The translations under genes were made by a program, and so were the position numbers. Shown one piece after another: positions 8,178 to 46,016 of a stretch of DNA of 47,926 nucleotides (positions within the stretch are counted from its first letter, which is position 1; each line of letters starts with the position of its first letter). The stretch lies in assembly GCA_903876815.1 (NCBI GenBank), contig CAIRBL010000087.1, forward strand, positions 1 to 47,926, read 5' to 3'. Under the pieces are notes generated by a model. That model had not been told where the DNA came from. It ran no database searches and was given only the letters and a program-made list of their open reading frames with translations. Source of the stretch: an uncultured bacterium (GTDB taxonomy: Bacteria; Patescibacteriota; Patescibacteriia; UBA1558; GWA2-36-10).

Positions 8178-9107
8178 ATGAAAAAGATTTTTAGTTTAGC
8201 CTTTGTTTTTTCTCTATTAGTTGTGCCACATTTTGTACAAGCTGGTTTTTTAGATGGCTTAGCTTGTGTGGAGAGTGGAGCAAATTGTAGTTTGGATGAT
8301 ATAAAAACTGGCTTTATAACTTTGACAAAATTATTAATAGGTGCGGTTGGCGCCTTAGCTCTTTTATATTTTATTTGGGGTGGAATACAGTGGATGACTT
8401 CTTATGGTAATCAGCAAAAAATTCAGCATGGTCGAGACATCATGTTACAAACAGTTGTGGCTTTGGTGATTGCCTTTACTAGTTTTTTGTTGGTAGAATT
8501 TTTTGTTAACGATTTTTTAAAAGCAGAATCACCGATCACTTCAGAATGCGCTAATCAAAAAGAAGGCAAGGCTTGTGGCGAAAATTATGTGTGTAGTGGC
8601 ATAGATTTTAAAGATGATCAAGCTGTTTATAATGAAATTTGTATGAGTAAGTGTCAGCTTAAAAGTCTAAAAGATACTAGCACTAATTGGACTTGTTTAT
8701 CGCCAGCTATAGCTGAGATGTCAGGTGTGAAATCAGAAAAAGGTTTGTGTCCAGGCAAGGACATTTGTGTGGATGTCAATTCTATTGCTATTGATAACTC
8801 ATCATCACCTACTAATGAATTTGCCGGAAAATCTTGTTGTGTCAATTATAGCGTTGGACGACCTAGTTGTCAGGAGATATCTTATTTAGATGAGTGTTTC
8901 GCTGGGCAGACAAAATTTAGCACAAATTGTAGTGAAGTTGATATGTGTGATCCAAATTGGGTTCAGGCAGATATCGGTTGTTGCGTGTCGAATGCTGGTG
9001 AGAATATTTGTATGGTGCCAAACGCTGGCATAATTTGTGATAATTTTTCTGCGCAAGATTGTGAAAATATTGTGGCCTGTGGTTGTACGTCGGGTTGTTA
9101 TGAATAA
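8178..9107 (+). CDS. VirB2/TrbC-like pilin domain fused to a Cys-rich extracellular C-terminal domain (P1)
   Basis: Signal peptide, two TM helices and the conserved loop WGGIQWMTSYGNQQKIQHGRD. A ~190-aa extension with 22 Cys follows. Confidence 0.65.
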   Translation: MKKIFSLAFVFSLLVVPHFVQAGFLDGLACVESGANCSLDDIKTGFITLTKLLIGAVGALALLYFIWGGIQWMTSYGNQQKIQHGRDIMLQTVVALVIAFTSFLLVEFFVNDFLKAESPITSECANQKEGKACGENYVCSGIDFKDDQAVYNEICMSKCQLKSLKDTSTNWTCLSPAIAEMSGVKSEKGLCPGKDICVDVNSIAIDNSSSPTNEFAGKSCCVNYSVGRPSCQEISYLDECFAGQTKFSTNCSEVDMCDPNWVQADIGCCVSNAGENICMVPNAGIICDNFSAQDCENIVACGCTSGCYE

Positions 9108-9125
9108 GTTGTATTAATTTAAAAT

Positions 9126-9464
9126 ATGAAAATAAAAAATTTGTTAGTTAGTTTGTATCTATTATTTTTAGCAAACATAGCTCAAGCGGAATCCTTGTAC
9201 AATCCTTTGGGTAAAAGTACAAATAAATTTCCCGTTTTAATTAATAATGCCATCAAAGGTATCTTAGGTTTGAGTGGCGCAGTAGCTTTGGTGATGATAG
9301 TTATTGGGGGTATTACTTGGATGACTTCAGCTGGTAACTCTGATCGCGTCAGACGTGGCAAAGACACTTTGTTGTGGGCAATTTTAGGCTTGTTGATTAT
9401 CTTTTTAAGCTACGCTATTATTAATTTTGTGTTTGAAGCTTTAGCAAGAGAAGCAAGTTTATAA
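9126..9464 (+). CDS. VirB2/TrbC-like pilin (P2)
   Basis: Signal peptide ..ANIAQA, GGITWMTSAGNSDRVRRGKD loop, two hydrophobic helices. Confidence 0.7.
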   Translation: MKIKNLLVSLYLLFLANIAQAESLYNPLGKSTNKFPVLINNAIKGILGLSGAVALVMIVIGGITWMTSAGNSDRVRRGKDTLLWAILGLLIIFLSYAIINFVFEALAREASL

Positions 9465-9543
9465 TTATAGTATTAATAATTGAAATTTATTACCTTGAAA
9501 GGGGGTGGAAAAATGAAAAAAATTATTACAGCTTTATTATTAG
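9460..9543 (+). repeat. 84-nt block identical to 9904-9987 (promoter, leader, SD and signal-peptide codons of pilin P3)
   Basis: The exact match tataattatagtattaataattgaaatttattaccttgaaagggggtggaaaaatgaaaaaaattattacagctttattattag occurs at both positions (444-nt period). Confidence 0.9.
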
Positions 9544-9872
9544 TAGCGCCGATGATGGCTTCAGCTCAAGTGACTACCGATTTTGGTTTGAATACTTTTG
9601 CAAATAGCGGCTTAGGCACTCGTGATCTTAAAGAGACTATTGCTGCTTTGATTAATGTTATTTTAGGTTTCTTAGGCATCATTGCCGTGTTGATCATTTT
9701 GTTAGGTGGTTTTAAATGGATGACCTCACAAGGTGATTCTGGTAAAGTAGATGAGGCTAAGGGTTTGATTGGTGCTGGCGTGGTTGGTTTAGTTATTATT
9801 TTAGCCGCCTATGCCATTGCTCAATTTGTTTTGACCAATGTCTATAACGCCACCGGCGGAGTAACGGCTTAA
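9513..9872 (+). CDS. VirB2/TrbC-like pilin (P3)
   Basis: ATG at 9513 is preceded by the SD AGGGGGTGG at good spacing; the track TTG start at 9480 is rejected. Signal ..PMMASA, loop GGFKWMTSQGDSGKVDEAKG. Confidence 0.75.
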   Translation: MKKIITALLLVAPMMASAQVTTDFGLNTFANSGLGTRDLKETIAALINVILGFLGIIAVLIILLGGFKWMTSQGDSGKVDEAKGLIGAGVVGLVIILAAYAIAQFVLTNVYNATGGVTA

Positions 9873-9880
9873 AATATTGA

Positions 9881-9909
9881 TTGAGTTTTTGTTTTTTTTA
9901 TCGTATAAT
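9881..9909 (+). promoter_or_regulatory. Promoter of pilin P4 (TTGAGT-17-TATAAT)
   Basis: -35 at 9881-9886, 17-nt spacer, -10 at 9904-9909. The -10 and everything downstream are duplicated from the P3 copy, whose -10 is at 9460-9465. Confidence 0.5.
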
Positions 9910-9987
9910 TATAGTATTAATAATTGAAATTTATTACCTTGAAAGGGGGTGGAAAAATGAAAAAAATTATTACAGCTTTATTATTAG
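9904..9987 (+). repeat. Second copy of the 84-nt pilin promoter/leader/signal block
   Basis: Identical to 9460-9543. Confidence 0.9.
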
Positions 9988-10295
9988 CAGCACCTATGAT
10001 GGCTTCAGCTCAAGGCAATTTTGGTCTTGATGATCTTAATACAAGTTTAGGCTCTCGTGAGCTTAAGAGCACGATTAGTCAATTAATTAATGTTGTCTTA
10101 GGTTTCTTAGGCATCATTGCCGTGTTAATCATTTTGTTAGGCGGTTTTAAATGGATGACCTCACAAGGATCGTCTGATAAGGTGGACGAAGCTAAGAAAT
10201 TAATTGGCGCTGGTATCGTGGGTTTGATTATTATCTTAGCCTCTTACGCAATTGCTCAATTTGTTTTGACCAATGTCTATAACGCTACTGTATAA
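9957..10295 (+). CDS. VirB2/TrbC-like pilin (P4), recent paralog of P3
   Basis: Same SD and signal peptide as P3. Loop GGFKWMTSQGSSDKVDEAKK. Identical C-terminal AIAQFVLTNVYNA. Confidence 0.75.
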   Translation: MKKIITALLLAAPMMASAQGNFGLDDLNTSLGSRELKSTISQLINVVLGFLGIIAVLIILLGGFKWMTSQGSSDKVDEAKKLIGAGIVGLIIILASYAIAQFVLTNVYNATV

Positions 10296-10302
10296 ATACC
10301 AT

Positions 10303-10339
10303 TATAGTCTAGACTATAGTAGGTCAACGCTTGACCTAC
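10303..10339. promoter_or_regulatory. Two adjacent perfect palindromes between pilins P4 and P5
   Basis: tatagtctagactata at 10303-10318, and gtaggtcaa-cgc-ttgacctac at 10319-10339. No T-run follows. Confidence 0.4.
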
Positions 10340-10345
10340 TAAAGT

Positions 10346-10771
10346 ATGGATTTTAAAAGTATGAAATTTAAATTAATTTTTTCTTTTCTTTTGCTTGCAC
10401 CTAGTCATTTGCTTTTAGCCGATGGTTTGTCTGAGGCACAAGCTGGTTTGAACGTAGCTGCTGGCGGAAATTTTAACACCAATAGAGGTATTAGAGATTA
10501 TATTGCTATTTTAATCAAAGGTGCTCTGTCATTGCTCGGGGCAATTTTTATTGTATTGATAGTTTTAGCTGGTTTTAAATGGATGACCTCAGCTGGAAAT
10601 TCTAGTAAGATAGATGAAGCTAAATCTACTATTGTAAATTCTGTGATTGGTTTAGCGGTAGTATTAGCAGCTTATGCTATTGTTAATTTTGTTTTACAAG
10701 CTTTACAAGATTCAGTTTCTAATTCCGGAGGCTTTAATGATGGTGGCGGTGGTGGTAATACACAAAATTAA
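10346..10771 (+). CDS. VirB2/TrbC-like pilin with a Gly-rich C-terminal tail (P5)
   Basis: Loop AGFKWMTSAGNSSKIDEAKS and two TM helices. The alternative ATG at 10361 (MKFKLIFSFLLLAPSHLLLA) may be the true start. Confidence 0.7.
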   Translation: MDFKSMKFKLIFSFLLLAPSHLLLADGLSEAQAGLNVAAGGNFNTNRGIRDYIAILIKGALSLLGAIFIVLIVLAGFKWMTSAGNSSKIDEAKSTIVNSVIGLAVVLAAYAIVNFVLQALQDSVSNSGGFNDGGGGGNTQN

Positions 10772-10786
10772 ATTTATATAATTGAA

Positions 10787-10820
10787 CCCCCGCCAAGCTG
10801 TGCTTGGCGGGGGCCTTTTT
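10787..10820. terminator. GC-rich bidirectional terminator
   Basis: 12-bp stem cccccgccaagc / gcttggcggggg (10787-10798 / 10802-10813) plus a T-run that overlaps the stop codon of the convergent gene. Confidence 0.8.
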
Positions 10821-11430
10821 ATCTCCTTTCTAAGGTTATGACCCAATCAACCATTTCACCATTGAATTCCATCTTGTGGTTATCGTTGGCTATGGCCGTT
10901 TCGTATTCGTAGACTCGGCCATTAGGTCTAATCTGCCAGTAAATAGTCAGGGGACCAGGACTAAGATCCTGTTGGCTAAAAGCGCCAGCTCTTAGGGCGA
11001 TCGTTTTGCCTTTGAATTTGACATTGATGATGTCTTGGCCAAAGGCATTATCTATGTAGCCATACAAGAGTGGGGCATCGTAGACGAAACGATCGTTAAT
11101 TTTGACCTCCTGGATACCAGGCCAGTGACCAGATCGTGGGATGGGAGGCAATTTAATTTCGTCAAGTGCCCAGCCACCCTTGTCATCTTTAACTCTTATA
11201 GAGATATGGATTACATCTCTACGCGGAGTTGACACTAGCTTAGGGTAATTTGGCAAGACTATGTGCCAAATATTTCCCTTTTCTTCGGCCACATTAACAA
11301 GGACTGCTTGTTCGCTTGTGATCCTCCACTGACAATATGAAGGATCATAATCAGGCGTGGGGCCTTGGTAGCTACTGCAAGCCACCATTAGCCAGCTCAG
11401 AGCCAGCCAAAAGAGCGTGTGCTTCTTCAT
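10819..11430 (-). CDS. Orphan lipoprotein, function unknown
   Basis: Lipobox LMVAC|SS. Strong SD (AAGGAAG, 7-nt spacing). More G/C-ending codons than neighbouring genes. No recognisable motif. Confidence 0.6.
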   Translation of the reverse strand: MKKHTLFWLALSWLMVACSSYQGPTPDYDPSYCQWRITSEQAVLVNVAEEKGNIWHIVLPNYPKLVSTPRRDVIHISIRVKDDKGGWALDEIKLPPIPRSGHWPGIQEVKINDRFVYDAPLLYGYIDNAFGQDIINVKFKGKTIALRAGAFSQQDLSPGPLTIYWQIRPNGRVYEYETAIANDNHKMEFNGEMVDWVITLERR

Positions 11431-11555: not shown

Positions 11556-13412
11556 ATGAATTTCCTATTAAAATTAAAAAAATTTTTAGAAAAGCACAGT
11601 TTTTTGTTTTTAGTTATAGCTGTCATTATTTATATAATCAGCTTTAGTTTTTTGACTCTAAAAAAACTAGACTATTTTGCTTATAATAATTTTGACCTAG
11701 CTATTTTTAATCAAGTTTTTTTCAACACTATTCACGGTCGTTGGCTAGAAATGACGGTTAATTTGAATAATTATATAGCTGATCATTTTACGCCTTTTAT
11801 CATTTTTCTTTTACCATTTTATGCTTTAAAACCTGGCCCAGAAACTTTACTTGTGATGCAAAGCTTTATTTTGGCTATTAGCGCCTTACCTTTATATTTT
11901 ATCAGTCACAGAGTAACTAAAAATAAAATATTATCTTTAGGCATAGCCTTGGCTTGGTTACTTAATCCATTTATCCACCAAGTTAATTTTACGGAAGTTC
12001 ATTTAGAGGTGGTAATGGCATCTTTATTTTTTATTATTTTTTATTTTTATTATCTTGATAAGTTTGGATATTTTTTATTATTTTTTATCCTCACTTTATT
12101 AGTCAGAGAGGATATGGCTTTATTTTTATTAGGCTTTCCTCTTTTGGCGTTATTTGAAAAAAGAAATTGGCGTTGGACATTTTTGCCAATTTTATTATCA
12201 ATTTCTTATTTTTTGTTTGCTGTTAAAGTAATAGATATTTTTTCAGTCCATAAACAGTATAAGTTTTTTATTTATTATGGCTGGCTAGGGGGCAGCGATG
12301 CTTTTTCCATTGCTTGGTCATTTGTCAGTCACCCTTGGCAAGTTTTGCGACATATTTTCAAGCTAGAAAATATTACTAGTGTTTTAGTTGTTTTGTGGCC
12401 GATGTTGTTTTTGCCTTTATACAAAAGCAAGTATTTACTTTTATCAGCCGTGCCTTTTGTTTTGACATTATTAACCGGCAGCGGCTTTAGCTCTTTGGTT
12501 TATCATACCCATTATATTTTATTTGTTTTACCAGGTATTTTTATTGCTTTTATTTTTGCCTTAGCTGATTTGCAGCAACATAAGTATTATCAGTATATTA
12601 TAATTTTATTGAGCGTTACTGTGATATATTTGGCTATATTTTTAGGCCCAGTAAAAAATTTTTTAGCGCATCAATTTGACACTAAGATAATAGATTATAA
12701 AAGACAATTAGTAAATCAAATACCTCCTGAGGCGAAAGTAGCTGTCAGCTCAGATTTTTTACCAGCCTTAAGTAGTCGGCAATATGTCTATCCTTTAAAT
12801 TATGCTTTTTTTGGTTATAGTCAATTTTTATTAGAACCTTTTGTTTTACCCCAGGTAGATTATTTATTTATTGATTTTGAAGATTTTATGATAGACGTGG
12901 TGGCCAAAGAGGGCAAGAGTTTTTTGACCGAGCATAAAGAAGTGATGAATGAAAACTGGCATAAAACATTGTCTGATTATGATTTGATTTCAGTTGAAAA
13001 AAATATTTTTTTCTTTAAGAAAAAAACTGAAGGGCAACAAAATTTATTTTTAAGTGAAGTAGTAGATTTTAGTAAAACAGACAATAACAAGGATTTGTTT
13101 TTTGGCCATAATTTTTTTGCCAAAGATAATGTTTTAGAAATTTTTGTGGATACAAATCTTTTTGTAGAAAATGCGTTGATTCGTTTTTATAGCAAAGACT
13201 CTTATTTTGATTTTCCATTAGACTATGCGATGTTTTCTAAAAAATTTTTAGAGCCAGACAAGGCTATTAAGCTGCATTATTATTTACCAGCAGACGTCGA
13301 GTCCTTTGAGATATTTAGTTGGACTGGTGAAAATATGGTTAGTTTGATTAATAATGCTGTGCCAGTTTTTCAGCTAGAGCTTTTACAAAGTAAAATTATT
13401 TTAAAGCGATGA
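11556..13412 (+). CDS. Polytopic membrane protein, DUF2079-like
   Basis: More than 10 TM helices. N-terminal FDLAIFNQVFFNT..ADHFTPFIIFLLPFYAL resembles the DUF2079 signature as I recall it. Large C-terminal soluble domain. Confidence 0.55.
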   Translation: MNFLLKLKKFLEKHSFLFLVIAVIIYIISFSFLTLKKLDYFAYNNFDLAIFNQVFFNTIHGRWLEMTVNLNNYIADHFTPFIIFLLPFYALKPGPETLLVMQSFILAISALPLYFISHRVTKNKILSLGIALAWLLNPFIHQVNFTEVHLEVVMASLFFIIFYFYYLDKFGYFLLFFILTLLVREDMALFLLGFPLLALFEKRNWRWTFLPILLSISYFLFAVKVIDIFSVHKQYKFFIYYGWLGGSDAFSIAWSFVSHPWQVLRHIFKLENITSVLVVLWPMLFLPLYKSKYLLLSAVPFVLTLLTGSGFSSLVYHTHYILFVLPGIFIAFIFALADLQQHKYYQYIIILLSVTVIYLAIFLGPVKNFLAHQFDTKIIDYKRQLVNQIPPEAKVAVSSDFLPALSSRQYVYPLNYAFFGYSQFLLEPFVLPQVDYLFIDFEDFMIDVVAKEGKSFLTEHKEVMNENWHKTLSDYDLISVEKNIFFFKKKTEGQQNLFLSEVVDFSKTDNNKDLFFGHNFFAKDNVLEIFVDTNLFVENALIRFYSKDSYFDFPLDYAMFSKKFLEPDKAIKLHYYLPADVESFEIFSWTGENMVSLINNAVPVFQLELLQSKIILKR

Positions 13413-15142
13413 GATTAAATATATTGTTAAAATTTTTTATCGTAGTTGTATTTTTTTCTTTTATTTTTTTAAGTTATTTCTTGAGCCACCCACACTACAA
13501 CTTGACTGATTGTTTGTTTATTAGTGGACAGTTTTTCTTGGTTTTTTTTCTTCTTTGGCAATTACTGGTTAAATTTTTACCACAGAAGATAGTCGCTTAT
13601 TTATTGAGTTTTGTGTTTATTATAGATTTTCTCTTGGTCATTTATTTTTTAATAGTAGGCATTCGTTTTAATTGGTTTTATTTTTGGTACAATCGTCAGG
13701 ATGCTTTTTTGAGCTTGCGGTTAGTTTTTGATAATTTTTATTTATCTTTATTTATCTTATTTATCTTTTTTCTTGTTATTGCCAAATTATTTTTGCTTAT
13801 CTTGGCTGATTTAAAATTTCCAAAAACAAAAACACAATATGTAGTGTATGTTTGTGCTTTTTTGTTTGTATTGTTTGCTTCTGCTGGGCCCAATAAAGCA
13901 GAAATTTTTACAGTATGGGGGGAAACTTTTAGTGGAAATAGTCAGATTATCAATTTGTATAGTCAAAAGTATAGTGATATTTTAGCACAAACCAATCAAG
14001 CTAATAAAAAAAATATAGAAACATTGCATGGTCTTGATGATTCTCAAAACGTATTTTTTTTACACTTAGAAAGTTTGAACAGTTCCTTAGTTGGTGAGGA
14101 CTTTACGCCAAATTTTTATAAGTTACAAAGCGAAGGATTAGTGTTTAAAAATTTACAAACAAATAATATTCAAACCATTAGAAGTGAAGAAAATATTTTG
14201 TGTCCAGTATTACCATCATTCGGCCTGTCCTTGCATCAGCAAGGCAAGTCGGCTGATTTATATTGTTTGCCGGCTATTTTTAAAGACCTTGGTTATAAAA
14301 CTTTATTTTTTAAAGACGATGATTTAAGTTTTGCCAATACCGGTGATTTTATGTTGAGTCTTGGTTTTGATGAGGTGCATAATAGCGATATTATGAAGCC
14401 AGAAGATAAATCTTTGCCTTGGGGTTATAGAGAGGATATTTTTTATCAGCGAGTTTTAGAATATTTAGAGCTATATAAGGGTCAAAAGATATTTGTTTAT
14501 ATTGCTGTGAGTGCAACTAATCACTTTCCTTTTATGACTTATGATAATTATCAAGACCTAAACTTAAACCTGCCATTTCAAGATGCGCAAAACATCAAAG
14601 AAAGAATGTCTAATACAAGCTTTTTGCAAGATCATTTTTTTGGTCAATTTTTGGAAACTTGGCGTTCAAAATATGCCAGCAGCTCTCATTTATTTGCTTT
14701 TGGTGATCAAGCTTGGCCAACCCAAGAGCATGGTAATTATCACAATGAGGCCTTTGCTTGGCAGGAAAATTTTGTTTCTAGTTTAGCTATGATTTCTCCG
14801 CAAATAGCTCAAGACACTTATGGTCTTAAAAATGATTATGTGCATCAGCTAGATATTTTTCCGACGGTCTTATCTTTAAATAATGTTACAAATACCATTT
14901 CTTTGGGCATTGATTTACTAGCAAAAAATGAAAAGCGTAAATGTATTATTTCTGTGCAGCCTTATTCTCGTAGATACATTGTGGTGATAGAATATCCCAA
15001 AAAATATTTGTATAATATTTTAGATAATAGTTTGGAAATTTATGATTTAGAACAAGACCCACAAGAAAAAAATCCAATTTTTCAGGGCTCCGCAGACGAC
15101 ATTTCTTATTTGGAAAATTGCCTCAACAATATTATTGATTAA
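13409..15142 (+). CDS. LtaS/sulfatase-family (alkaline-phosphatase superfamily) membrane enzyme
   Basis: About 5 N-terminal TM helices and an extracellular domain with FFLHLESLNS and SATNHFPF motifs. ATGA overlap with the upstream gene. Confidence 0.6.
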   Translation: MRLNILLKFFIVVVFFSFIFLSYFLSHPHYNLTDCLFISGQFFLVFFLLWQLLVKFLPQKIVAYLLSFVFIIDFLLVIYFLIVGIRFNWFYFWYNRQDAFLSLRLVFDNFYLSLFILFIFFLVIAKLFLLILADLKFPKTKTQYVVYVCAFLFVLFASAGPNKAEIFTVWGETFSGNSQIINLYSQKYSDILAQTNQANKKNIETLHGLDDSQNVFFLHLESLNSSLVGEDFTPNFYKLQSEGLVFKNLQTNNIQTIRSEENILCPVLPSFGLSLHQQGKSADLYCLPAIFKDLGYKTLFFKDDDLSFANTGDFMLSLGFDEVHNSDIMKPEDKSLPWGYREDIFYQRVLEYLELYKGQKIFVYIAVSATNHFPFMTYDNYQDLNLNLPFQDAQNIKERMSNTSFLQDHFFGQFLETWRSKYASSSHLFAFGDQAWPTQEHGNYHNEAFAWQENFVSSLAMISPQIAQDTYGLKNDYVHQLDIFPTVLSLNNVTNTISLGIDLLAKNEKRKCIISVQPYSRRYIVVIEYPKKYLYNILDNSLEIYDLEQDPQEKNPIFQGSADDISYLENCLNNIID

Positions 15143-16673
15143 TTTGGTATATTTCTGCTTCAAGGTCTTCATAGACCAAATTAATATTTTGATTAGCCAA
15201 AAGAGCATTTTTAAATGCTTCTTTTTTATTGTCTTTTTCTAGGAAAATATAGTGTGCGCCAAATTTAGCGGGGATTACTTGATCTAAGCTATTTATTTTG
15301 CCCTCCAGAATATCAAAATAACTTTGTTGTAAATCAGGGCTAAAATTGTACATAAAAGTTTGATCTAGACCGATTAAGTAATAGTTGTGATCATTGTGAT
15401 AAAACAGCATAGGCCATTGATCCCAATCATCATGAAAAACAATACTTTTTTCTGGTATATTTTGTTTGAGCCAAGTAGCGCTGGCTTGAAATTTATCAAG
15501 TGGCCAGTTGTTATATAAAGACGAGCCAATGGTTTTATTGATTAAAAGTGGAATTATTAAGATAACTAAAATACTTAAGCAACTGGTGACAAATATTTTT
15601 AAGTTGATTTTTAAACTGAGCCAAAAATGATAAAAATTTTTAAGCTTTAGAATATTTTTTAAATCATCTCCAGCAAAAGCAACAAATATTAAGGTGAATG
15701 GCAAAAAGTACTCTATATATCTTTTTGATTTGACGGTCAATAATAAAAAACCAAAAGCTAGTAAAAAGGCAAAAAGTGTTTTTTTTGTGATCGATTGATA
15801 TTGAAAAACTAACAGGGCAATAAATAAAATACTTAATATAAAGAGCTGTGGTCCAGAGGATATGATTTCGAAAAATTGAGCCCCATACCATTCGCTACCA
15901 ACAATAAATTTTTGTCCGAGATTAATAATGCCGATTTGTACAACTTGTTGGTAGTAAAAGTATAAATTTTGTGGCCAATTGGGGTGAGATGCTATGCCAA
16001 TCAAAACACCACTAAGACTCCAAAAGATGCTGGACCAATGATAATGAGATTTTTCTTGATTTGTAAGTTTATTAAATAAATAAATACTAGTAAAATACGC
16101 TAAATAAATAGGAAAGATGATTGGCCAGCCACCATATAGCCAAACAAACATAAAACCGCTCAGCAGTAATAAATATTTTTTTTGTTTTATTAAAGCATAA
16201 ATAAATAGTAGGCAGATGATAAAGCTTAGGGAGTTGACTTTGATGAGACTCCAGCGAAAATTGAGATTTGGTAAAGTTATCACTAATAAAGTCAGTGGCC
16301 AAGCCAAGTTAATTTTGAGTTTTTTTAAAAAAATATATAAAGCTAGAGCAGCTGAGCTAGCAAAAATAACGGTTGCTATTTTTACTGCCCAAAGTGGGTC
16401 AAAAATATGAGTAAAAAAAGATAGTAAAAGATGATAAAGAAAATGATGGTCAGTAAAACTGTCTTTAAGGGTGCTAAATTGCATCCAGGGCAAAGTTTGT
16501 AGTATTTCACCTTTAGCGATTAATTGAGCCATTTTGGCGTGATAAAAGCCATCTGGATCACCGATAATAGGCTTTCTTTGCCACCACCAATAAAAAGATA
16601 AAAAAATGATAAATAATGACAAATAATCAATTGGCCATTTTTTGAGCTTATTTTTCCAGTCGCCACTATGCAT
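15132..16673 (-). CDS. Polytopic GT-C-like (ArnT/PMT-like) membrane glycosyltransferase candidate
   Basis: About 12 TM helices, an early extracytoplasmic DPDGFYH loop and a C-terminal soluble domain. ATG at 16673 is preferred over the TTG at 16709. Confidence 0.4.
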   Translation of the reverse strand: MHSGDWKNKLKKWPIDYLSLFIIFLSFYWWWQRKPIIGDPDGFYHAKMAQLIAKGEILQTLPWMQFSTLKDSFTDHHFLYHLLLSFFTHIFDPLWAVKIATVIFASSAALALYIFLKKLKINLAWPLTLLVITLPNLNFRWSLIKVNSLSFIICLLFIYALIKQKKYLLLLSGFMFVWLYGGWPIIFPIYLAYFTSIYLFNKLTNQEKSHYHWSSIFWSLSGVLIGIASHPNWPQNLYFYYQQVVQIGIINLGQKFIVGSEWYGAQFFEIISSGPQLFILSILFIALLVFQYQSITKKTLFAFLLAFGFLLLTVKSKRYIEYFLPFTLIFVAFAGDDLKNILKLKNFYHFWLSLKINLKIFVTSCLSILVILIIPLLINKTIGSSLYNNWPLDKFQASATWLKQNIPEKSIVFHDDWDQWPMLFYHNDHNYYLIGLDQTFMYNFSPDLQQSYFDILEGKINSLDQVIPAKFGAHYIFLEKDNKKEAFKNALLANQNINLVYEDLEAEIYQINQ

Positions 16674-16680
16674 ATAGCTT

Positions 16681-16689
16681 ATTTTAGCA
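16681..16689 (-). promoter_or_regulatory. Extended -10 (TGCTAAAAT) 7 nt upstream of the ATG at 16673
   Basis: The minus strand reads TGCTAAAAT-aagctat-ATG. Confidence 0.45.
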
Positions 16690-16806
16690 GAACAAAAAAT
16701 CCTCGCCAAGCATGGGGGCGGGGATCTCTACAAAATCAGCTAAACTAATTTTATTATGGATCTTTAAAGTCGTCAAGTTTTTGTAGGGAAGGTGCTGGTT
16801 TTTTGG

Positions 16807-17607: not shown

Positions 17608-18111
17608 ATGTCAAATATTAAAAAAACTATTTTAGGTTTAGACCCTGGTTTTGCAGATACTGGTTTTGGTGTGGTGACAAAAGAAAATCATACTTTAAAA
17701 TTTATTACAGCCGGCAGTATCAAGACAGATAAAAAGCTTGATTTTGCCAAGCGTTTGGAAGTTATCTATAAAGAAATCAATTTACTCATCAAAAAATATC
17801 AGCCTGATATAGTAGCGATTGAAAAATTATATTTTGCTCGTAACGTTACAACTGCTTTGGACGTTGGTCAGGCTAGAGGAGTAGTTTTATTGGCTATCGC
17901 GCAGCAACAAAAAAATTTTATAGAGTTTACTCCCTTGCAAGTCAAACTGACTTTGACAGGCTCGGGTGCAGCCGATAAGCGCCAGGTTGGTCTGATGGTG
18001 AAGACAATTTTAAAATTATCAGCCGTACCTAAGCCAGACGATGCAGCCGATGCGGTGGCTCTGGCTATTTGCGGCGCTTGGTTTAATCAAAAATTATCAC
18101 AAGTGAAATGA
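17608..18111 (+). CDS. ruvC: Holliday junction resolvase RuvC
   Basis: ILGLDPGFADTGFGVV catalytic N-terminus and C-terminal DAADAVALAI motif. Confidence 0.85.
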   Translation: MSNIKKTILGLDPGFADTGFGVVTKENHTLKFITAGSIKTDKKLDFAKRLEVIYKEINLLIKKYQPDIVAIEKLYFARNVTTALDVGQARGVVLLAIAQQQKNFIEFTPLQVKLTLTGSGAADKRQVGLMVKTILKLSAVPKPDDAADAVALAICGAWFNQKLSQVK

Positions 18112-19598
18112 AAAAATTAAAAATAGTTTCAATTTCTTCAGAGCTTGATCCATTTGTCAAAACTGGTGGCTTAGGTGATGTGGCTCGAGCTTTGCCTAAA
18201 AGTTTGCATCGTTTAGGTCACGAGGTGATAGTTATTATTCCTTTTTATAGCAAAGTCATTGACGCTAAAAAGTATAATTTAAAAAAAATTTATACCGATA
18301 TTTTGATTAATGTCGATAAAAAAAATTCAGTTAAAGTAGATTTTTACCAAGGAGAATTAATGCCTCAATTACCAGTTTATTTTGTTCGTTGTGATAAATA
18401 TTTTGGTAAGAAAAAAAATATTTATAGCTCATCTCGTGAAAATGCGCGTTTTTATTTATTTTCTGTAGCCGCTTTAAAGTTAATCTCTTTACTGAAATTT
18501 AAAGCCGACATTATCCATTGTCATGATTGGCATACAGGTTTAATTCCCTATTTAAAAAATACTCGTTTTAAAGACAGCCAGACACTCAAAAATTCGGCTA
18601 CTATTTTTACGATTCATAATCTGACTTTTCAATTCGGACAAAATTGGTGGGAAGTACCAGTAAAATTAAGAGACAAAGGCAAGCTGGCTTTACCAGATTT
18701 TAAAGCCAGTCAATTAGCTTATATTAATTTTGCTAAACGAGGTATTATGTATGCTGATGCTGTTAATACAGTTTCAGAAACTTATGCTAAAGAGATTTTA
18801 AAAAAACATTTTGGTCAAGATTTACATCGTATTTTGATGAATCGAAAACATAAATTATTTGGCGTCGTTAATGGCATTGATTATTATCAATACAATCCCA
18901 AAACTGATAAGACTTTGATTAAAAATTATACTATAGACAATATTCATCGTAAAATAGTCAACAAAAGATATGTGCAAAAGCTTTATCATTTACCCATAAC
19001 TGACAACACGCCATTGATTTGTTTGACCTCTAGATTAGTTGAACAAAAAGGTTTTGATTTAGTCATTGATGTTTTGCCAACTTTGCTTTTACAAGATGTA
19101 CAAGTGATTATTTTGGGAGCAGGTGATAAAAGATATGTCCAAAAACTAAATAAATTAGCTAAAGCCCATAGTGATAAATTAGTTGTCATACCTTCTCATC
19201 AGGAAGTTTTAAAAAGAGAGACTTTGGTTTATGCTGGAGCGGATTTCTTTTTGTTGCCTTCTCGTTTTGAGCCTTGCGGAATTAATCAGTTGATTAGTTT
19301 TCGTTATGGCTGTGTGCCGATAGTGCGTGCTACTGGTGGTTTGTCTGACACGGTGATTAATTTTGATCCTAAAACAGATAAGAAAACCAAAGGTAACGGC
19401 TTTAATTTTAAAAATTATAAAACCGCTGAATTGTTAGTAGCCTTAACCAGAGCAATAGAGACTTATCATCACAGGCAAATATGGAAAGACTTGATTAGAC
19501 GTGGCATGTCAGCTTCTTTTTCTTGGGATTTGCCAGCCAGAAAATATTTAGAGCTTTATAAAAAAGCTATTAATTTTAAAAAAGAAGAAAATGTCTAA
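18108..19598 (+). CDS. glgA: Glycogen/starch synthase (GT5), paralog 1
   Basis: KTGGLGDV motif and HCHDWHTGL. ATGA overlap with ruvC. Confidence 0.85.
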   Translation: MKKLKIVSISSELDPFVKTGGLGDVARALPKSLHRLGHEVIVIIPFYSKVIDAKKYNLKKIYTDILINVDKKNSVKVDFYQGELMPQLPVYFVRCDKYFGKKKNIYSSSRENARFYLFSVAALKLISLLKFKADIIHCHDWHTGLIPYLKNTRFKDSQTLKNSATIFTIHNLTFQFGQNWWEVPVKLRDKGKLALPDFKASQLAYINFAKRGIMYADAVNTVSETYAKEILKKHFGQDLHRILMNRKHKLFGVVNGIDYYQYNPKTDKTLIKNYTIDNIHRKIVNKRYVQKLYHLPITDNTPLICLTSRLVEQKGFDLVIDVLPTLLLQDVQVIILGAGDKRYVQKLNKLAKAHSDKLVVIPSHQEVLKRETLVYAGADFFLLPSRFEPCGINQLISFRYGCVPIVRATGGLSDTVINFDPKTDKKTKGNGFNFKNYKTAELLVALTRAIETYHHRQIWKDLIRRGMSASFSWDLPARKYLELYKKAINFKKEENV

Positions 19599-20742
19599 AA
19601 TAACGTGGGTTAATTTTTTACATATTTATCAGCCACCTTGGCAAGAAGAGGGCATCATTCACCAAACTGCCAGAGAGAGTTATGACTATTTATTTACTTT
19701 GCTTGAGAAATATCCTAAGTTTACTTTTACTTTAAATATTAGTGGTTCTTTAATTGAACAATTAAATATTTTAGAGCCAGAAATTTTAGCTAAGTTACAA
19801 CTTGTCGTCAAAAATAAACGTTTAGAACTTACAGCCTCGGCTTTTTATCACCCCATTTTACCATTACTACCAGAGCAAGAAGTATTAAGGCAAATAAAAC
19901 TTAATCAAGAAATATTATTTAAATATTTTAAAATTAAGCCAGCAGGTTTTTATTTACCGGAAATGGCTTATAGTTTAAAAACTGCTAAAATTATTAAAAA
20001 ATTAGGTTTTAGCTGGATTATTTTAGATCCAATTTCCACGTCGCAAAAAATAAACAATAATATTTTATACCAAATTAAAAATTTAGGTCTAAAAGTAATT
20101 TTTAGAGATAGATGCTATTCCCAAAGTTATCCTGCCGAAGCTATTTATCAAAAATTTCAGCACCAAGAAATAAAAGTAGAAACTATCATTACTGCCACTG
20201 ACGGTGAAATGTATGGTCATAAACATGAAGACTGGCAGGGACATTTGGAAAAGATTTTAGTAAATAAAAATTTAGATGTTTTAACGGTTTCTCAATATTT
20301 AAAAACTTTAAAACAAACAGCAAGTGTGAGCTTACGTGATTCTTCTTGGGAGACAAGTCAAAAAGATTTACAAAAAAACATTCCTTTTGCTTTATGGCAA
20401 GATCCCAAAAATAGTATTCACAAAACTTTATGGCAATTAGCAAATTTAAGCATTAGTTTAGTCAAAAAATACCCTAAAGATCAAAATCATTTTTGGGCTC
20501 GATACCATTTAGATAGAGGTTTATCATCTTGTACTTTTTGGTGGGCAAGTGCTAAAAAAGTAGGTATTTTTTCAGACCTCGCTTGGCATCCAGACATGGT
20601 AGACAATGGCGCTGAAGAATTAGTAAGAAGTGCAAGATCACTAAAGCAAGCAAGTGTTGCGGAAAAAATTCAAGCTGAACGTTATTATACTAAAGCAAAA
20701 AGATTGATTTGGGAGAGGCATTGGCGTAAATATAATATTTAA
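19591..20742 (+). CDS. Glycoside hydrolase family 57 protein (short form)
   Basis: HIYQPPW, YPKFTFTLNISGSLIEQL and FYHPILPLLP motifs. Candidate nucleophile region FYLPEMAYS and acid/base region TDGEMYGH. 8-nt overlap with glgA. Confidence 0.7.
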   Translation: MSKITWVNFLHIYQPPWQEEGIIHQTARESYDYLFTLLEKYPKFTFTLNISGSLIEQLNILEPEILAKLQLVVKNKRLELTASAFYHPILPLLPEQEVLRQIKLNQEILFKYFKIKPAGFYLPEMAYSLKTAKIIKKLGFSWIILDPISTSQKINNNILYQIKNLGLKVIFRDRCYSQSYPAEAIYQKFQHQEIKVETIITATDGEMYGHKHEDWQGHLEKILVNKNLDVLTVSQYLKTLKQTASVSLRDSSWETSQKDLQKNIPFALWQDPKNSIHKTLWQLANLSISLVKKYPKDQNHFWARYHLDRGLSSCTFWWASAKKVGIFSDLAWHPDMVDNGAEELVRSARSLKQASVAEKIQAERYYTKAKRLIWERHWRKYNI

Positions 20743-20750
20743 TAAAATCT

Positions 20751-21809
20751 ATGGAACTTGAAGAACAAAAGAAAAAGGTAGCCTTGTTAAACGATGAGTT
20801 GTTTATTAAAGATTGTTTTAATCAAAATTTAGGTAAATATTATCCAGATTTTGTAGAAGTAAAACAGCTTGATTTGCATGCTTACAAAAAACATGTGGGC
20901 AAAACTAGTGCTGTTTTTGTGGTGGGCTATAAAGTAGAATACTTAGCCAAAGATAATAGTATTAAAAAAATAAAATTAGTTGCCACTGGTCATTCTGATG
21001 GCTCAAGAAAATTAGCTTTTGCTAAACTCAATTATTTGTATCAACATGGTTTTAATGACGGTAAATATTTGGTCACCAAACCATTGTTTTATTTAGAGGA
21101 AAATTTAGCTTTTGTTTACGAAGCTTCTATTGGTCATCGTTTGTTTAGTTTTTTTAAAGCAGATGAGTATTTAAATTTAGCTAATGCTATGAATTTAGCT
21201 GCTGCTTGGGTTAAAAAATTACATCACTTAGAATTAGACGAGACTTTTGCTTGGCCAAAATTTTCCGTTAATCATATTGGCCCTAGTGTACAGAAATTTT
21301 TTACTGACATTATTAGTCACAATGAAGTTTTGGGTAAAAGAGTAGAAAAGATGTTAGCAGATATTAAAAACCATGAAGAGAAATTTCAGCAAAATTTAAA
21401 ACCATGTTTAGTCTATGGTGACTATCATCCAGAAAATGTGATTTTGACTAGCCTAGAAGCTAAACAAATTAAGATGATAGATTTTACTGATGTGGCTTTG
21501 GGTGATCCAATGGTGGATCTTGGCTCTTTTTTACAGCAATTAGATTTTATGGGGCATAGATTTTTTTCTCGAGCTAAAGTTAACTACGAAAAAGAGTATT
21601 TTATCACTAGCTATTTTGGTCAAAAAATTCAAGATATTCCAGCAGAATTTTTTCCTCGTATCAATTTATACCAAGCTTGGGTAGCTTTACGCACTGCTGC
21701 CTTTTTGTTTTATATGCACAAAGATGATTCAGTGAATTTATTATTAGATGAAGTAGAGAAATATTTAGTTTTGGTTGAAAGTGGTGAAAGAAAAATTAAT
21801 CTTTATTAG
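20751..21809 (+). CDS. APH/ChoK-fold phosphotransferase (kinase) of unknown substrate
   Basis: Catalytic loop YGDYHPENVIL and Mg-binding IDFTDVALGDPMVDLG. Confidence 0.65.
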   Translation: MELEEQKKKVALLNDELFIKDCFNQNLGKYYPDFVEVKQLDLHAYKKHVGKTSAVFVVGYKVEYLAKDNSIKKIKLVATGHSDGSRKLAFAKLNYLYQHGFNDGKYLVTKPLFYLEENLAFVYEASIGHRLFSFFKADEYLNLANAMNLAAAWVKKLHHLELDETFAWPKFSVNHIGPSVQKFFTDIISHNEVLGKRVEKMLADIKNHEEKFQQNLKPCLVYGDYHPENVILTSLEAKQIKMIDFTDVALGDPMVDLGSFLQQLDFMGHRFFSRAKVNYEKEYFITSYFGQKIQDIPAEFFPRINLYQAWVALRTAAFLFYMHKDDSVNLLLDEVEKYLVLVESGERKINLY

Positions 21810-21867
21810 TTTTTAGTTTTATAAATTTTCATGTTATAATTAGCTTATCTTAAATGGTAAGCTTTTT

Positions 21868-23340
21868 ATGTTAAATAAAAAAATAACCCCGCAAAGCGGG
21901 ATCAAGAAAATAATATTTATTGGTGCTGAACTTAATCCCCTAGTTAAAGTAGGAGGTTTGGCTGATGTGATGGGAGCTTTACCTAAAGCCTTGCTTAAGT
22001 TAGATATAGAGCCTTTGCTTATTTTACCTTTTTATGGCGCCATCAATAAACAACTATATCCTAGCAAATTAGTCAAAGCTAATTTAAAATTTCCTCATAC
22101 CAAAGTTATTTTTTCTGTTTATCAAACTTTATTGCCAAAAACTAAAATCAAAATTTTATTAATTAAAAATAAATTTTTTGATACTCAAGAGGTTTATTTG
22201 CCCGCTTCGCCGAATCGAGGCGAGCTAAAAAATGATGCAGAAAGATTTGCGGTGTTTGCTAAATGTGCAGTTGAAGCTATCAAGGTTTTAAATCTCAAGC
22301 CAGATTTGGTTCATTGTCATGATTGGCACACAGCACTAGTGCCGACTATTTTAGATGAATATAGTTTAGCAGATAAAAACTTTGCTAATATACCGACTTT
22401 ACTCACTATTCATAATCTTGCCAGTCAAGGTTTAAGCTCTTTAGAGTTAGTTTATCAAGTGGCTTTAAATAAAAAACTAACACCAGCTTTGATGGAGGAT
22501 TATTATGATGATGACAAGCTCGATCAATTAAAAATCGGCATTTTATCAGCTGATATGATAAATACCGTGAGCCCAACTTATGCCCAAGAAATTTTGACCA
22601 AAGCTTATGGCGCTGGTTTAGAAAAATATTTGCAAAGAAGAAAGAAAAATTTAAAGGGAATTCTAAATGGTATTGATGTAGATTTTTTTAATCCTCATAC
22701 TGATAAATTAATTTATAAAAAATACAATATTAATAATTATCAAGCAGCTAAATTATTTAACAAACAGGCTTTACAAAAAGAGTTAAAATTAGCAGAAAAA
22801 AATGTACCGATATTTGCTATTATATCTAGACTAGTTTCCCAAAAAGGTCTAGACATTTTAAGTCCTTTATGGGAAAAATTTTTGAGCTATGATTTGCAGA
22901 TTGTTATTTTGGGCACCGGTGACAAAAAGTATGAAGCTGAGCTGGCAATCTTAAATAAAAAATATCCTAAAAAGTTTAGAGCTATTTTAAAATTTGATGC
23001 CACACTTGCTCAAAAAATTTATGCGGGTGCTGATTTTTTCTTAATGCCCTCTCATTTTGAGCCTTGTGGTTTAGGTCAAATGATTGCTATGCGCTATGGC
23101 ACTTTGCCTCTAGTGCGAGAGACTGGTGGCTTAAAAGATAGTGTGAGGCATAAAAAAACAGGTTTAGTTTTTACAAAATATGATAGTAAAGATTTAGAAC
23201 AAACTTGGCAACAAGCACTCAAGATTTTTGCTGATAAAAAAGTTTTAGCTAAAATGATTAAAGCAGCGATGAGTCAAGATTTTTCTTGGGACAAATCAGC
23301 TTTAGAGTATGTAAAAATATATAAGAAGTTAATAAAATAA
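21868..23340 (+). CDS. glgA: Glycogen/starch synthase (GT5), paralog 2
   Basis: KVGGLADV, HCHDWHTAL and the C-terminal EPCGLGQMIAMRYGTLP motif. Confidence 0.85.
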   Translation: MLNKKITPQSGIKKIIFIGAELNPLVKVGGLADVMGALPKALLKLDIEPLLILPFYGAINKQLYPSKLVKANLKFPHTKVIFSVYQTLLPKTKIKILLIKNKFFDTQEVYLPASPNRGELKNDAERFAVFAKCAVEAIKVLNLKPDLVHCHDWHTALVPTILDEYSLADKNFANIPTLLTIHNLASQGLSSLELVYQVALNKKLTPALMEDYYDDDKLDQLKIGILSADMINTVSPTYAQEILTKAYGAGLEKYLQRRKKNLKGILNGIDVDFFNPHTDKLIYKKYNINNYQAAKLFNKQALQKELKLAEKNVPIFAIISRLVSQKGLDILSPLWEKFLSYDLQIVILGTGDKKYEAELAILNKKYPKKFRAILKFDATLAQKIYAGADFFLMPSHFEPCGLGQMIAMRYGTLPLVRETGGLKDSVRHKKTGLVFTKYDSKDLEQTWQQALKIFADKKVLAKMIKAAMSQDFSWDKSALEYVKIYKKLIK

Positions 23341-23345
23341 TTTTT

Positions 23346-24281
23346 ATGAAAAGACTTACAAAATCTGAAATTCGCAAAGACTATATTCAGGAAAAATATG
23401 TCATCATTGCTCCTAAGCGTGGCAAGCGTCCTCATGATGTGATTAAAGCCAAAGAATATCACAAGCCCCTGAATACTTGTGTGCTATGTCCAGAATCTTT
23501 AAAAGACACTAAGGCTTTATATCAAATAGGTAGCGGTGATAAGTGGTCACTGAAAGTTATTGCCAATAAATTTCCTGCAGTCTCTAAAACAAATAAAAAA
23601 GCCTACGGACAACAAGAAGTAGTAGTGGAAAGTTCAGATCATACTAAAGAAATAGAGGACTTAAGTGTGAAACAGATTGCTGATTTATTGACGGCTTACC
23701 AAGTCAGGACCAAAGAAATCTCTAAAGACAAAAAAATTGAGTATATTTTGATTTTTAAAAACGATGGTGGTGTAGCCGGTGCCAGTCTTCAGCATTCACA
23801 CTCACAAATTTTTGCCACTCAATTTTTACCGCCACATTTATTAGACAAATCCAAAAGGCAACAAGAGTATACTTTAGAGCACGGCACTTGCGTTTATTGT
23901 GATGTGATCAAAAAAGAGACCAAAAGTCCACGCTTTATTTGGCAAGATAAAAATATGATTGCTTTTTGTCCTTATGCTTCAATGTTTAATTATGAAGTTT
24001 GGATTATGCCCAAAAAGCATCAAGATAATATCACAGATTTATCAAAAGACGCTAAGCTTTCGATGGCGAAAATTTTGAAACACATTTTGACTAAAATCAG
24101 TCAGCTAGATTTGCCTTACAATTTTTATTTTCATCAGCTTATCAATGATGACGATCAGCATTTGTACTTAAAAGTTGTGCCGCGCGGTTCTGTTTGGGCG
24201 GGAGTAGAAATAGGTTCTGGTTTAATTATCAATCCTATTCCACCTGAAGAAGCAGCGGAATTTTATCGAAAAGGATTATAA
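23346..24281 (+). CDS. GalT-like HIT-family nucleotidyltransferase (Gal-1-P uridylyltransferase / NDP-glucose phosphorylase class)
   Basis: Zn-site CVLCPE and the HxHxQ active site HSHSQIF. Confidence 0.7.
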   Translation: MKRLTKSEIRKDYIQEKYVIIAPKRGKRPHDVIKAKEYHKPLNTCVLCPESLKDTKALYQIGSGDKWSLKVIANKFPAVSKTNKKAYGQQEVVVESSDHTKEIEDLSVKQIADLLTAYQVRTKEISKDKKIEYILIFKNDGGVAGASLQHSHSQIFATQFLPPHLLDKSKRQQEYTLEHGTCVYCDVIKKETKSPRFIWQDKNMIAFCPYASMFNYEVWIMPKKHQDNITDLSKDAKLSMAKILKHILTKISQLDLPYNFYFHQLINDDDQHLYLKVVPRGSVWAGVEIGSGLIINPIPPEEAAEFYRKGL

Positions 24282-38676: not shown

Positions 38677-39075
38677 TCAGGGTGCAAGTTTTTTTTCCAT
38701 TGCCCTGTGCAGACCTGCTACTGTCAAGTTTTTCTGGGGACAGAGAGGAGCAAAGGCTTGGAGAAAAAATTTGCCGTTGAGTTCAAGCCAGGTATCAAGA
38801 ACCATATATGAAGACAATGTGCCATGATCTGACAGTTGGACGATATAGTGAAGTTCCCAGAGGGCAATTGTGATTATTTGCTTGACGCTCAGTACGCCAA
38901 GTAATGTTTCGATCTCCTCTGAGTTACGGAAGTAGGTTTTGAAAGCATGGTGTCTTAGGTTTTGGATCAGTCGATCATCGACGATACTGTCGCGTATGAT
39001 CAGCAACCAACGTAAATAGCTAATGTATTCTTCATAAGAGTTTAGCTTATTTTTGTTGGCAATTATACCAGACAT
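38677..39075 (-). CDS. Orphan 132-aa helical protein, function unknown
   Basis: Consensus SD GGAGG 8 nt upstream of the ATG at 39075. Higher G+C than most neighbours. No motif assigned with confidence. Confidence 0.55.
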   Translation of the reverse strand: MSGIIANKNKLNSYEEYISYLRWLLIIRDSIVDDRLIQNLRHHAFKTYFRNSEEIETLLGVLSVKQIITIALWELHYIVQLSDHGTLSSYMVLDTWLELNGKFFLQAFAPLCPQKNLTVAGLHRAMEKKLAP

Positions 39076-39151
39076 TTGAGTTACCTCCATTGTTACACAA
39101 GGTGCATTGTTCCTATTTACCCTAGCATTTTAAAAATGGTCTGTAAAGTTT

Positions 39152-45977: not shown

Positions 45978-46016
45978 AAATATTATTTTATTTATCAAAA
46001 GTGAATTAACTCTGGT

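Follow-up and report, generated by a model that had tools for sequence, protein, structure and literature searches.

An ordered array of five VirB2/TrbC-type pilin genes joined to galU and a solute-binding lipoprotein gene in an uncultured patescibacterium

We describe a tandem array of pilin genes in a 47,926-nt stretch of contig CAIRBL010000087.1, from an uncultured patescibacterium; this whole 48-kb stretch is referred to as the window. Between positions 8178 and 10771, five adjacent and co-directional open reading frames (ORFs) on the + strand, numbered here pilins 1 to 5, all encode pilins of the VirB2/TrbC type. They follow a galU-like gene and a gene for a lipoprotein of the solute-binding protein (SBP) type, with gaps of 7 nt between galU and the SBP gene and 20 nt between the SBP gene and pilin 1, so that the spacing of 7-20 nt given in the initial annotation of this DNA is correct. 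The coordinates of the features are collected in Table 1.

Five paralogous pilins

All five products share a signal-like N-terminal segment, a hydrophobic helix, a loop and a second helix (hydropathy and motif, 5/5), and in all five the loop between the two hydrophobic segments carries the invariant pattern G..WMTS.G. The initial annotation had seen in these ORFs the layout of type IV secretion system (T4SS) pilins, and its coordinates, helices and WMTSxG loop were all verified. The Pfam search for T4SS-pilin families that it had proposed places every product above the gathering score of PF18895 (T4SS_pilin; 31.9, 46.5, 34.0, 33.3 and 39.3 bits for pilins 1-5, gathering score 26.6) and two of them above the cut-off of 27.9 for PF04956 (TrbC/VirB2; 32.0 bits for pilin 2 and 29.1 bits for pilin 4). 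The best NCBIfam match is the same for all five, NF045849, a pilin-like family of Mycoplasma integrative and conjugative elements (ICEs; E 4e-9 to 6e-3), at scores of 16-36 bits that all lie below its 40-bit cut-off, so that the pilins are not members of it. A profile of the short pilins matches 92,503 cluster representatives at E<=1e-3. By profile, all five genes belong to the VirB2/TrbC superfamily (PF18895).

The paralogs vary mainly at their ends, as had been proposed. When the recent pair formed by pilins 3 and 4 is set aside, mean identity between paralogs is 13% in the exposed N-terminal segment and 2% in the C-terminal tail, compared with 33-35% in the helices and 51% in the loop. Five adjacent pilin genes in a Patescibacteria genome, with products 27-33% identical to pilin 1, constitute an array of divergent paralogs as defined by Quinonero-Coronel et al. 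2025. The Cys-rich domain and Gly-rich tail that had been noted are also present, the first in pilin 1 and the second at the C terminus of pilin 5.

Orthologues and Shine-Dalgarno (SD) sites indicate that translation of pilins 3, 4 and 5 likely begins at the ATGs at 9513, 9957 and 10361; for pilin 5, the start at 10361 is based on orthologues that begin MK(Y/I/L)KL. The longer TTG/ATG ORF starts of these three genes are probably not in use. Gene lengths differ in other assemblies (119 versus 125 aa, and so on), and we rejected strain-level variation as an explanation because the three assemblies of the source population are 99.98-100% identical in DNA over the array, leaving differences in start calls only.

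Pilin 1 consists of a signal peptide, a conserved GFLD..C..NC segment, a helical hairpin with the loop GGIQWMTSYGNQQKIQHGR and a Cys-rich ectodomain; 22 of its 24 Cys residues fall within the C-terminal extension of ~190 aa. The long-pilin subfamily to which it belongs is small, with 27 homologues, 26 of which have a recorded PF18895 domain and the last of which aligns as a long pilin. Their C-terminal extensions are modular, Cys-rich and variable in length. In an AlphaFold2 (AF2) model of pilin 1 (mean predicted local distance difference test score, pLDDT, 76.8), the hairpin spans residues 39-113 and residues 120-200 of the extension are predicted fairly confidently (pLDDT ~88-90). The ectodomain has no fold match in the PDB, and a sequence search, which used the full-length protein, returned only pilin relatives. 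Pilin 2 is modelled as an alpha-hairpin (pLDDT 85, helices 35-66 and 72-111), and its mature N terminus would start near a conserved LYNPLG.

Ancient paralog types in a fixed order

When one genome per species was scanned, the long pilin had 253 relatives, and 79 loci were returned; their labels are Komeili-, Uhr-, Magasanik- or Falkowbacteria or 'Parcubacteria'. All ORFs of the loci were clustered, with ~83 loci in the clustering. Recurrence of the same array in 79 species-level loci and in many metagenome contigs argues that it is not a chance arrangement. Across 81 loci we counted 453 pilin ORFs, in arrays of 3-12 genes. An SBP homologue is present in 71 of the ~83 clustered loci, always directly 5′ of the pilins, and a GalU homologue in 63, directly 5′ of the SBP gene at a median gap of 6 nt. 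The order GalU, SBP, long pilin, short pilins holds in nearly all of the loci that have these homologues, some 60-70 at species level, despite differing flanks, which upstream comprise either FtsK, an HTH protein, RecA, Wzx and Wzy or Big_13, M23 peptidase and PD40 proteins, and downstream a small lipoprotein, DUF2079, a GT-C-like membrane protein, YebC and RuvC.

In 37 of 68 loci the SBP and first pilin genes overlap or abut (gap <=0 nt; modes, -4 and -8 nt), and in 59 of the 68 they lie <=30 nt apart. In a search seeded with the SBP, all three homologues found at 42-44% identity are directly followed by a PF18895 gene; for two of the three, galU is absent and the remaining pilins are 5-7 kb away. 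Coupling between the SBP gene and the first pilin gene is tight and, from the spacing, probably translational. The initial annotation had called the sugar-binding lipoprotein an orphan; it is instead the tightest-linked partner of the first pilin.

Two observations concern the surroundings of this module in other genomes. Where the array is split (L127 8001-9896 and L129 8001-9923; also L046 and L076), the SBP gene retains one pilin gene directly 3′, followed by an HTH_25 gene and a methyltransferase gene, with the other pilins 5-7 kb further on. In Magasanik-/Uhrbacteria-like loci (L047, L048, L053, L061-L063, L074 and L086), three type IV pilus-type pseudopilin genes (N termini GFTLIE or ISLIET) lie directly 5′ of the GalU-SBP-pilin module; two unrelated pilin systems are therefore adjacent there.

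The individual pilins can be followed between loci by position. Over ~40 loci, pilin 1 corresponds to position 1 (always first), pilin 2 to position 2 (in most loci), pilins 3 and 4 to position 3, and pilin 5 to the last position. Median identity to orthologues is 41% for pilin 1, 55% for pilin 2, 63/58% for pilins 3/4 and 44% for pilin 5, with benchmarks of 58% for the SBP and ~64% for YebC and RuvC. The type at position 3 (type 3) is thus the most conserved pilin (63%) and evolves at a rate similar to that of YebC and RuvC. By this orthology the array is composed of at least four ancient paralog types kept in a fixed order across many species. Because the paralogs are ancient, ordered and individually conserved, distinct roles in one assembly are favoured over switching between alternatives.

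Additionally, single polypeptides with 2-17 tandem VirB2-like hairpins occur naturally (P0061, P0063, P0064, P0071 and P0073). The three that we examined (P0061, P0064 and P0073) have no internal signal peptides and for this reason look like real fusions, not read-through calls; P0073 ends in a Cys-rich tail. The existence of such multi-hairpin fusions suggests that pilin hairpins assemble side by side.

Secretion machinery probably encoded elsewhere in the genome

Pfam scans of every window ORF >=90 aa detected no VirB4, VirB6, VirD4/type IV coupling protein (T4CP) or relaxase in the 48 kb, in agreement with the initial annotation, and at E<=1 nothing T4SS-relevant was found in the ORFs at 15132-16709, 35866-36492, 38677-39090, 45570-45998 and 10819-11430. 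By gene list, the 10 kb that follow the window on its 72.9-kb parent contig also contain no T4SS genes; they encode CSD, TsaD/E, an aminoacyl-tRNA synthetase and a PilB-like T2SSE ATPase. This last gene (578 aa, PF00437, ~7.5-9.5 kb past the window end) is of the type IV pilus/type II secretion family and is not VirB4.

The closest named relative is Parcubacteria group bacterium GW2011_GWA2_36_10 (GCA_000991205.1, locus L020), which has the same gene order and neighbouring proteins 67-93% identical to those of the window. Synteny and identity to it place the source lineage, as far as these can tell, in class ABY1. In the tables of Quinonero-Coronel et al. 2025 (PMC12102498), GW2011_GWA2_36_10 is GTDB class ABY1 and VirB4-positive (Table S1), with TrsD as gene 233 and VirB4 as gene 234, and its VirB2 genes (464-466 and 648) are all marked 'VirB4 proximity: No' (Table S3). 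The ABY1 genomes that are both among our loci and in Table S1 are 4/4 VirB4-positive, and in two more ABY1 Magasanikbacteria genomes of Table S3, outside our loci, VirB2 is again remote from virB4 (PMC12102498). Because TrsD and VirB4 are present at another site in a close relative that shares the locus, the absence of machinery is most likely local only, and pilins away from virB4 are the usual ABY1 layout. Given that relative and the VirB4-positive ABY1 genomes, the implication of the initial annotation that no secretion machinery serves these pilins is not supported.

A hairpin specific to the pilin arrays

Directly before the last pilin gene lies an invariant 19-mer, TAGTCTAGACTATAGTAGG (10305-10323), which forms the 5′ half of an interrupted hairpin of ~18 bp (10306-10352). 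The exact 19-mer recurs in 30 loci whose proteins are only ~45-60% identical, inside the array where checked; besides the window, the element is recorded at L005-L033, L038, L049, L065, L075, L078, L081 and L088-L126. The aligned hairpins have 98.2% of their cells paired, with covariation at two inner pairs (UA15/CG12/UG3 and CG20/UA6/AU4). Its covariation is 0.263, compared with 0.108 in shuffled alignments, none of 500 of which scored as high, and slid controls collapse. RNAalifold predicts 18 pairs, and the changes in the outer stem are all G-U compatible on the + strand; the minimum free energy is -26 kcal/mol (z = -6.6). On the + strand, covariance-model scores are 63-80 bits (47 for one added match, L029), against 25-53 bits on the - strand. 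The model picks up four further loci, of which one is truncated by the end of its contig, and over 1.4 Mb has no reliable matches outside pilin arrays. Further, each of the 39 metagenome contigs with the exact 19-mer has a pilin gene <=650 nt upstream. Among the loci and contigs examined, the hairpin is confined to pilin arrays, and it has no Rfam match at the gathering threshold or at E<=1.

The palindrome TAGTCTAGACTA may be a DNA operator only. An RNA on the sense strand is suggested by the G-U compatibility of the changes and by the 25-30-bit difference between strands in covariance-model score, and a structured sense-strand RNA is the interpretation that we favour. As to its role, processing, mRNA stability and protein binding are guesses. 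We found no description of it in the literature on Patescibacteria pilin arrays.

A recent duplication with identical leaders

Pilins 3 and 4 are tandem duplicate units, 84.5% identical in DNA, with a synonymous divergence (dS) of ~0.53 in the coding sequence; from these sequences, the pair is a recent lineage-specific tandem duplication. Its ratio of nonsynonymous to synonymous divergence (dN/dS) is ~0.94 in the exposed N-terminal segment (21 codons only) versus 0.17 in the core, suggesting relaxed constraint confined to the exposed segment of this pair. Despite the coding dS, the leaders that precede the two genes, each with a TATAAT and the strong SD site GAAAGGGGGTGGA, are identical over 53/53 nt, and the first 57 coding nt are likewise near-identical, which suggests that the 5′ end is under strong constraint or subject to gene conversion. 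The SD/TATAAT motif is kept 5′ of type-3 pilins in related loci. High conservation, a strong SD site and a promoter-like site of its own make the type-3 pilin the candidate bulk, or major, subunit.

Operon boundaries and neighbouring genes

A promoter-like site just 5′ of galU may serve as the operon promoter, and a stem-loop beyond pilin 5 would likely close both the operon and the convergent gene that follows it. That gene encodes a predicted lipoprotein of 203 aa whose homologues hold the same post-array position in 21 loci; whether it is part of the pilin system is uncertain. The SBP has distant matches to sugar-binding SBP structures and scores far below the cut-offs of the NCBIfam sugar SBPs. 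Neither the window nor the recurrent gene families within +/-10 kb of the 79 loci include ABC permease or ATPase genes; the linked permease and ATPase of an SBP-dependent ABC importer are absent.

Table 1. Positions of the pilin genes and associated features in the window
Feature	Position	Strand	Description
Candidate sigma-70-type promoter	5890-5918	+	TTTACT-17-TATAAT, 10/12 matches, consensus scan; just 5′ of galU
galU-like gene	5925-6785	+	UTP-glucose-1-phosphate uridylyltransferase; PF00483 NTP_transferase, E 2e-28
SBP gene	6793-8157	+	Family-1 carbohydrate-type solute-binding lipoprotein; signal peptide plus Cys; PF13416, PF01547
Pilin 1	8178-9107	+	Type 1, 'long pilin'; 309 aa; PF18895
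Pilin 2	9126-9464	+	Type 2; 112 aa; PF18895 and PF04956
Leader before pilin 3	9460-9512	+	53 nt; TATAAT, strong SD site
Pilin 3	9513-9872 (longer ORF from 9480)	+	Type 3; PF18895
Promoter-like site	9881-9909	+	TTGAGT-17-TATAAT, consensus scan; before pilin 4
Leader before pilin 4	9904-9956	+	Second 53-nt copy; promoter-like site plus SD
Pilin 4	9957-10295 (longer ORF from 9924)	+	Type 3 duplicate; PF18895 and PF04956
Intergenic element	10305-10352	+	Between pilins 4 and 5, immediately 5′ of the last pilin gene
Pilin 5	10361-10771 (alternative upstream ATG 10346)	+	Type 5, last position; PF18895; Gly-rich C-terminal tail
Stem-loop, likely bidirectional terminator	10787-10813		12 bp, 10 GC, then T run; terminator scan
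Predicted lipoprotein gene	10819-11430	-	203 aa, convergent; no Pfam or NCBIfam family

The rest of the window is housekeeping chromosome of ~35% GC, encoding RuvC, YebC, PolA, UvrB, NusA, trigger factor, an H+-PPase and PBP1. Upstream of the operon, dockerin-domain (131-1270), cohesin-domain (1285-2175) and Big_13 (2310-4067) proteins are encoded side by side, possibly a set for surface adhesion comparable with that noted to be essential in S. epibionticum. Downstream, positions 11556-16709 encode a DUF2079 membrane protein, an LtaS/sulfatase-like protein and a 525-aa multi-pass protein without a Pfam match that is GT-C-like by appearance; these genes, found behind the array in 19-28 related loci, resemble a gene set for an envelope glycopolymer. 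A further co-directional cluster (18108-24281) encodes two glycogen-synthase paralogues, a GH57 enzyme, an APH-like kinase and a GalT-like transferase, and is kept beside YebC and RuvC in relatives.

Relation to known pilins and pilin arrays

Arrays of this kind are published, and the locus is a further instance. Quinonero-Coronel et al. 2025 searched 3,035 Patescibacteria genomes with PF04956, PF18895 and CONJScan profiles, defining an array as at least two pilin genes in tandem or with one non-pilin gene between them (PMC12102498). Of the VirB4-positive assemblies, 1,948 had VirB2-like pilins, which were near virB4 in only 1,135, so that pilin genes lie away from virB4 in ~40% of the assemblies that carry both; 441 arrays of 2-11 genes were catalogued in 383 assemblies, with identities within arrays of 25% on average and 54% at most (PMC12102498). 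The bare existence of such an array, which the initial annotation had implied to be new, is therefore not new. In Southlakia epibionticum ML1 a six-pilin array is essential (Wang et al. 2023, PMC10633639), and its T4SS lacks a relaxase and is thought not to conjugate.

The present array shares with these (PMC12102498, PMC10633639) its PF18895/PF04956 families, tandem divergent paralogs, chromosomal position and lack of a nearby relaxase. The S. epibionticum array is inside the T4SS locus, whereas here and in the ABY1 relatives checked the pilins are not near virB4. Unlike the published arrays, this one is joined into a galU-SBP operon, has a Cys-rich ectodomain on its first pilin and carries an RNA hairpin before its last. 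We found no mention of these features, or of the fixed paralog order, in the literature on Patescibacteria arrays; the SBP is unmentioned in Quinonero-Coronel et al. 2025 (PMC12102498).

More distant likenesses are of several kinds. VirB2 of the T-pilus, TrbC of RP4 and TraA of F have, like the pilins here, a signal peptide and two helices joined by a short polar basic loop, and the likeness extends to PF04956 matches above cut-off in two of the five pilins and to the predicted alpha-hairpin. They differ in that the host here is presumed monoderm, several paralogs replace one major pilin, linked VirB3-B11 genes are absent, and the pilins have no significant structural or PDB-sequence match. 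NF045849 (Mbov_0395/MMCAP2_0565 of Mycoplasma ICEs) comes from monoderm MPF-FATA-type elements, a T4SS class related to Patescibacteria VirB4, and is a single gene in the ICE rather than a chromosomal array. MPF-FATA systems are stated to lack VirB2 homologues (PMC12102498), a statement with which the sub-threshold NF045849 similarity of all five pilins sits uneasily. The virB2 clusters of Anaplasma and Bartonella (cited in PMC12102498) also comprise several tandem divergent copies that differ in exposed parts; these are diderm pathogens of eukaryotes whose arrays are read as antigenic variation, whereas the types here are ancient and ordered. Finally, an archaeal conjugation-like pilus of the Ced/Ted kind (8dfu) is the only pilus subunit among the top Foldseek matches of both models; the match is structural only and is not significant.

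Discussion

We consider it probable that the five pilins build a heteromeric pilus-like structure assembled by a remotely encoded VirB4/TrsD machine. The region would be the pilin part of a Patescibacteria-type (class ABY1) T4SS-related system, organised as a galU - SBP lipoprotein - five-pilin operon. Its pilins would be exported by Sec and, once cleaved by signal peptidase, would be kept in the cytoplasmic membrane, both termini outside, until a VirB4/TrsD/VirB3-type machine encoded elsewhere on the chromosome, as in GW2011_GWA2_36_10, extracted and polymerised them. The product may be a heteromeric filament or conduit for host-cell interaction, not conjugation. In it, the type-3 pilin would supply the bulk of the filament, and the first pilin, as a distal or adhesive subunit, would expose its disulfide-rich C-terminal ectodomain alongside the SBP lipoprotein. 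The hairpin would set the relative expression of the last pilin, for example via mRNA processing or stability. A non-conjugative role agrees with the published view of the Patescibacteria T4SS, a system with no relaxase and with pilin arrays that are essential in S. epibionticum.

Several observations weigh against assembly by a remote machine. Reviews report that no such pilus has been observed in any Patescibacterium, and within ~58 kb (the window plus the next 10 kb) no T4SS machinery gene was seen. The constant linkage is to galU, the SBP gene and envelope-glycan genes (DUF2079, GT-C-like and LtaS/sulfatase-like), not to virB4, and would also fit a T4SS-independent envelope role. A sequence-profile search of the PDB gave zero matches for the pilins, and a Foldseek search of the PDB with the models of pilins 1 and 2 returned nothing at E<=1e-3; solved conjugative pilins are not matched at significance, the best relevant entry being the A. 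pernix conjugation pilus 8dfu (rank 4, E 1.6-2.2, template modelling (TM) score 0.51-0.56 on the target). Because helical hairpins are generic folds, this structure search does not discriminate. The roles suggested for individual paralogs, the SBP and the hairpin are inference only.

It is unlikely, in our judgement, that the SBP and the two-helix proteins make up a self-contained surface layer, or a complex spanning the membrane or wall, that is assembled without VirB4, perhaps for the capture or uptake of host glycans. Such a device would fit with VirB2 genes marked as not near virB4 in the ABY1 genomes checked, with the absence of a VirB4-like family among the recurrent families, the only ones annotated, within +/-10 kb of the 79 loci, with frequent start/stop overlaps of SBP and pilin genes and an adjacency that persists where the array is split, and with the envelope-glycan neighbours. 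The poly-pilin fusions, each of a fixed hairpin number, also suggest defined-size assemblies over open-ended filaments. However, homologous PF18895 arrays are found within virB4 loci, and are essential, in other Patescibacteria classes; every ABY1 genome checked has VirB4; and two-helix pilins have neither the features of an ABC permease nor a linked ATPase.

The initial annotation had suggested a multi-subunit or antigenically variable surface structure, not a classical conjugative pilus. Its multi-subunit part is supported by the fixed paralog order. We regard it as very improbable that the array is a cassette for antigenic or host-range variation, in which each paralog is a variant of a single surface subunit and expression or exchange alters the exposed epitopes. 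This possibility has been raised for Patescibacteria, as for Anaplasma/Bartonella virB2 (PMC12102498), and the concentration of divergence in the exposed N-terminal segment and C-terminal tail is consistent with it, as is the elevated dN/dS in the few exposed codons of pilins 3 and 4. Yet each paralog type has positional orthologues across deeply diverged species, and type 3 is conserved like a housekeeping protein (63%, near the ~64% of YebC and RuvC). Further, all copies are complete, with start codon and signal peptide, the leaders before pilins 3 and 4 differ from the hairpin before pilin 5, no silent cassettes or recombination-driving repeats are present, and the array is near-identical across the three assemblies of the population. 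That the products are no pilins at all, being generic small two-helix membrane proteins (holin-like or membrane anchors) that match the profiles by hydrophobic composition, is scarcely credible. Weak sub-threshold Pfam matches to Holin_9, DUF6112 and other membrane families, together with the non-discriminating structure search, would allow it, but all five products exceed the curated PF18895 threshold, the invariant polar loop, kept across the 92,503 family representatives, is no compositional feature, all five resemble NF045849 below its cut-off, and family members elsewhere lie inside virB4 loci.

These results bear on how Patescibacteria, also called candidate phyla radiation (CPR) bacteria, attach to and draw nutrients from host cells, an open question in which the T4SS and its pilin array have proved essential in the single species tested. 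For ABY1, a large uncultivated class, the leads are at least four ordered pilin types, an SBP beside an ectodomain pilin and an array-specific hairpin. What merits specialist attention is the link to the SBP, the constant order of the paralogs, the Cys-rich pilin at the head of the array and the RNA hairpin before its last gene. If the coupling of SBP and pilin genes reflects a physical complex, the 'pilus' would be linked to substrate capture. A bolder proposal, which we think quite improbable, is that the SBP and the ordered VirB2-like hairpins of ABY1 form a dedicated module, either an envelope-spanning conduit of fixed stoichiometry or a receptor-tipped filament, for host-glycan uptake. 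Its first subunit might work physically with the SBP, a conjugation-type ATPase might not be needed, and the pilin-specific structured RNA might set the subunit ratios. If true, such a module would represent a new use of the VirB2 fold and a concrete mechanism of nutrient acquisition for CPR bacteria.

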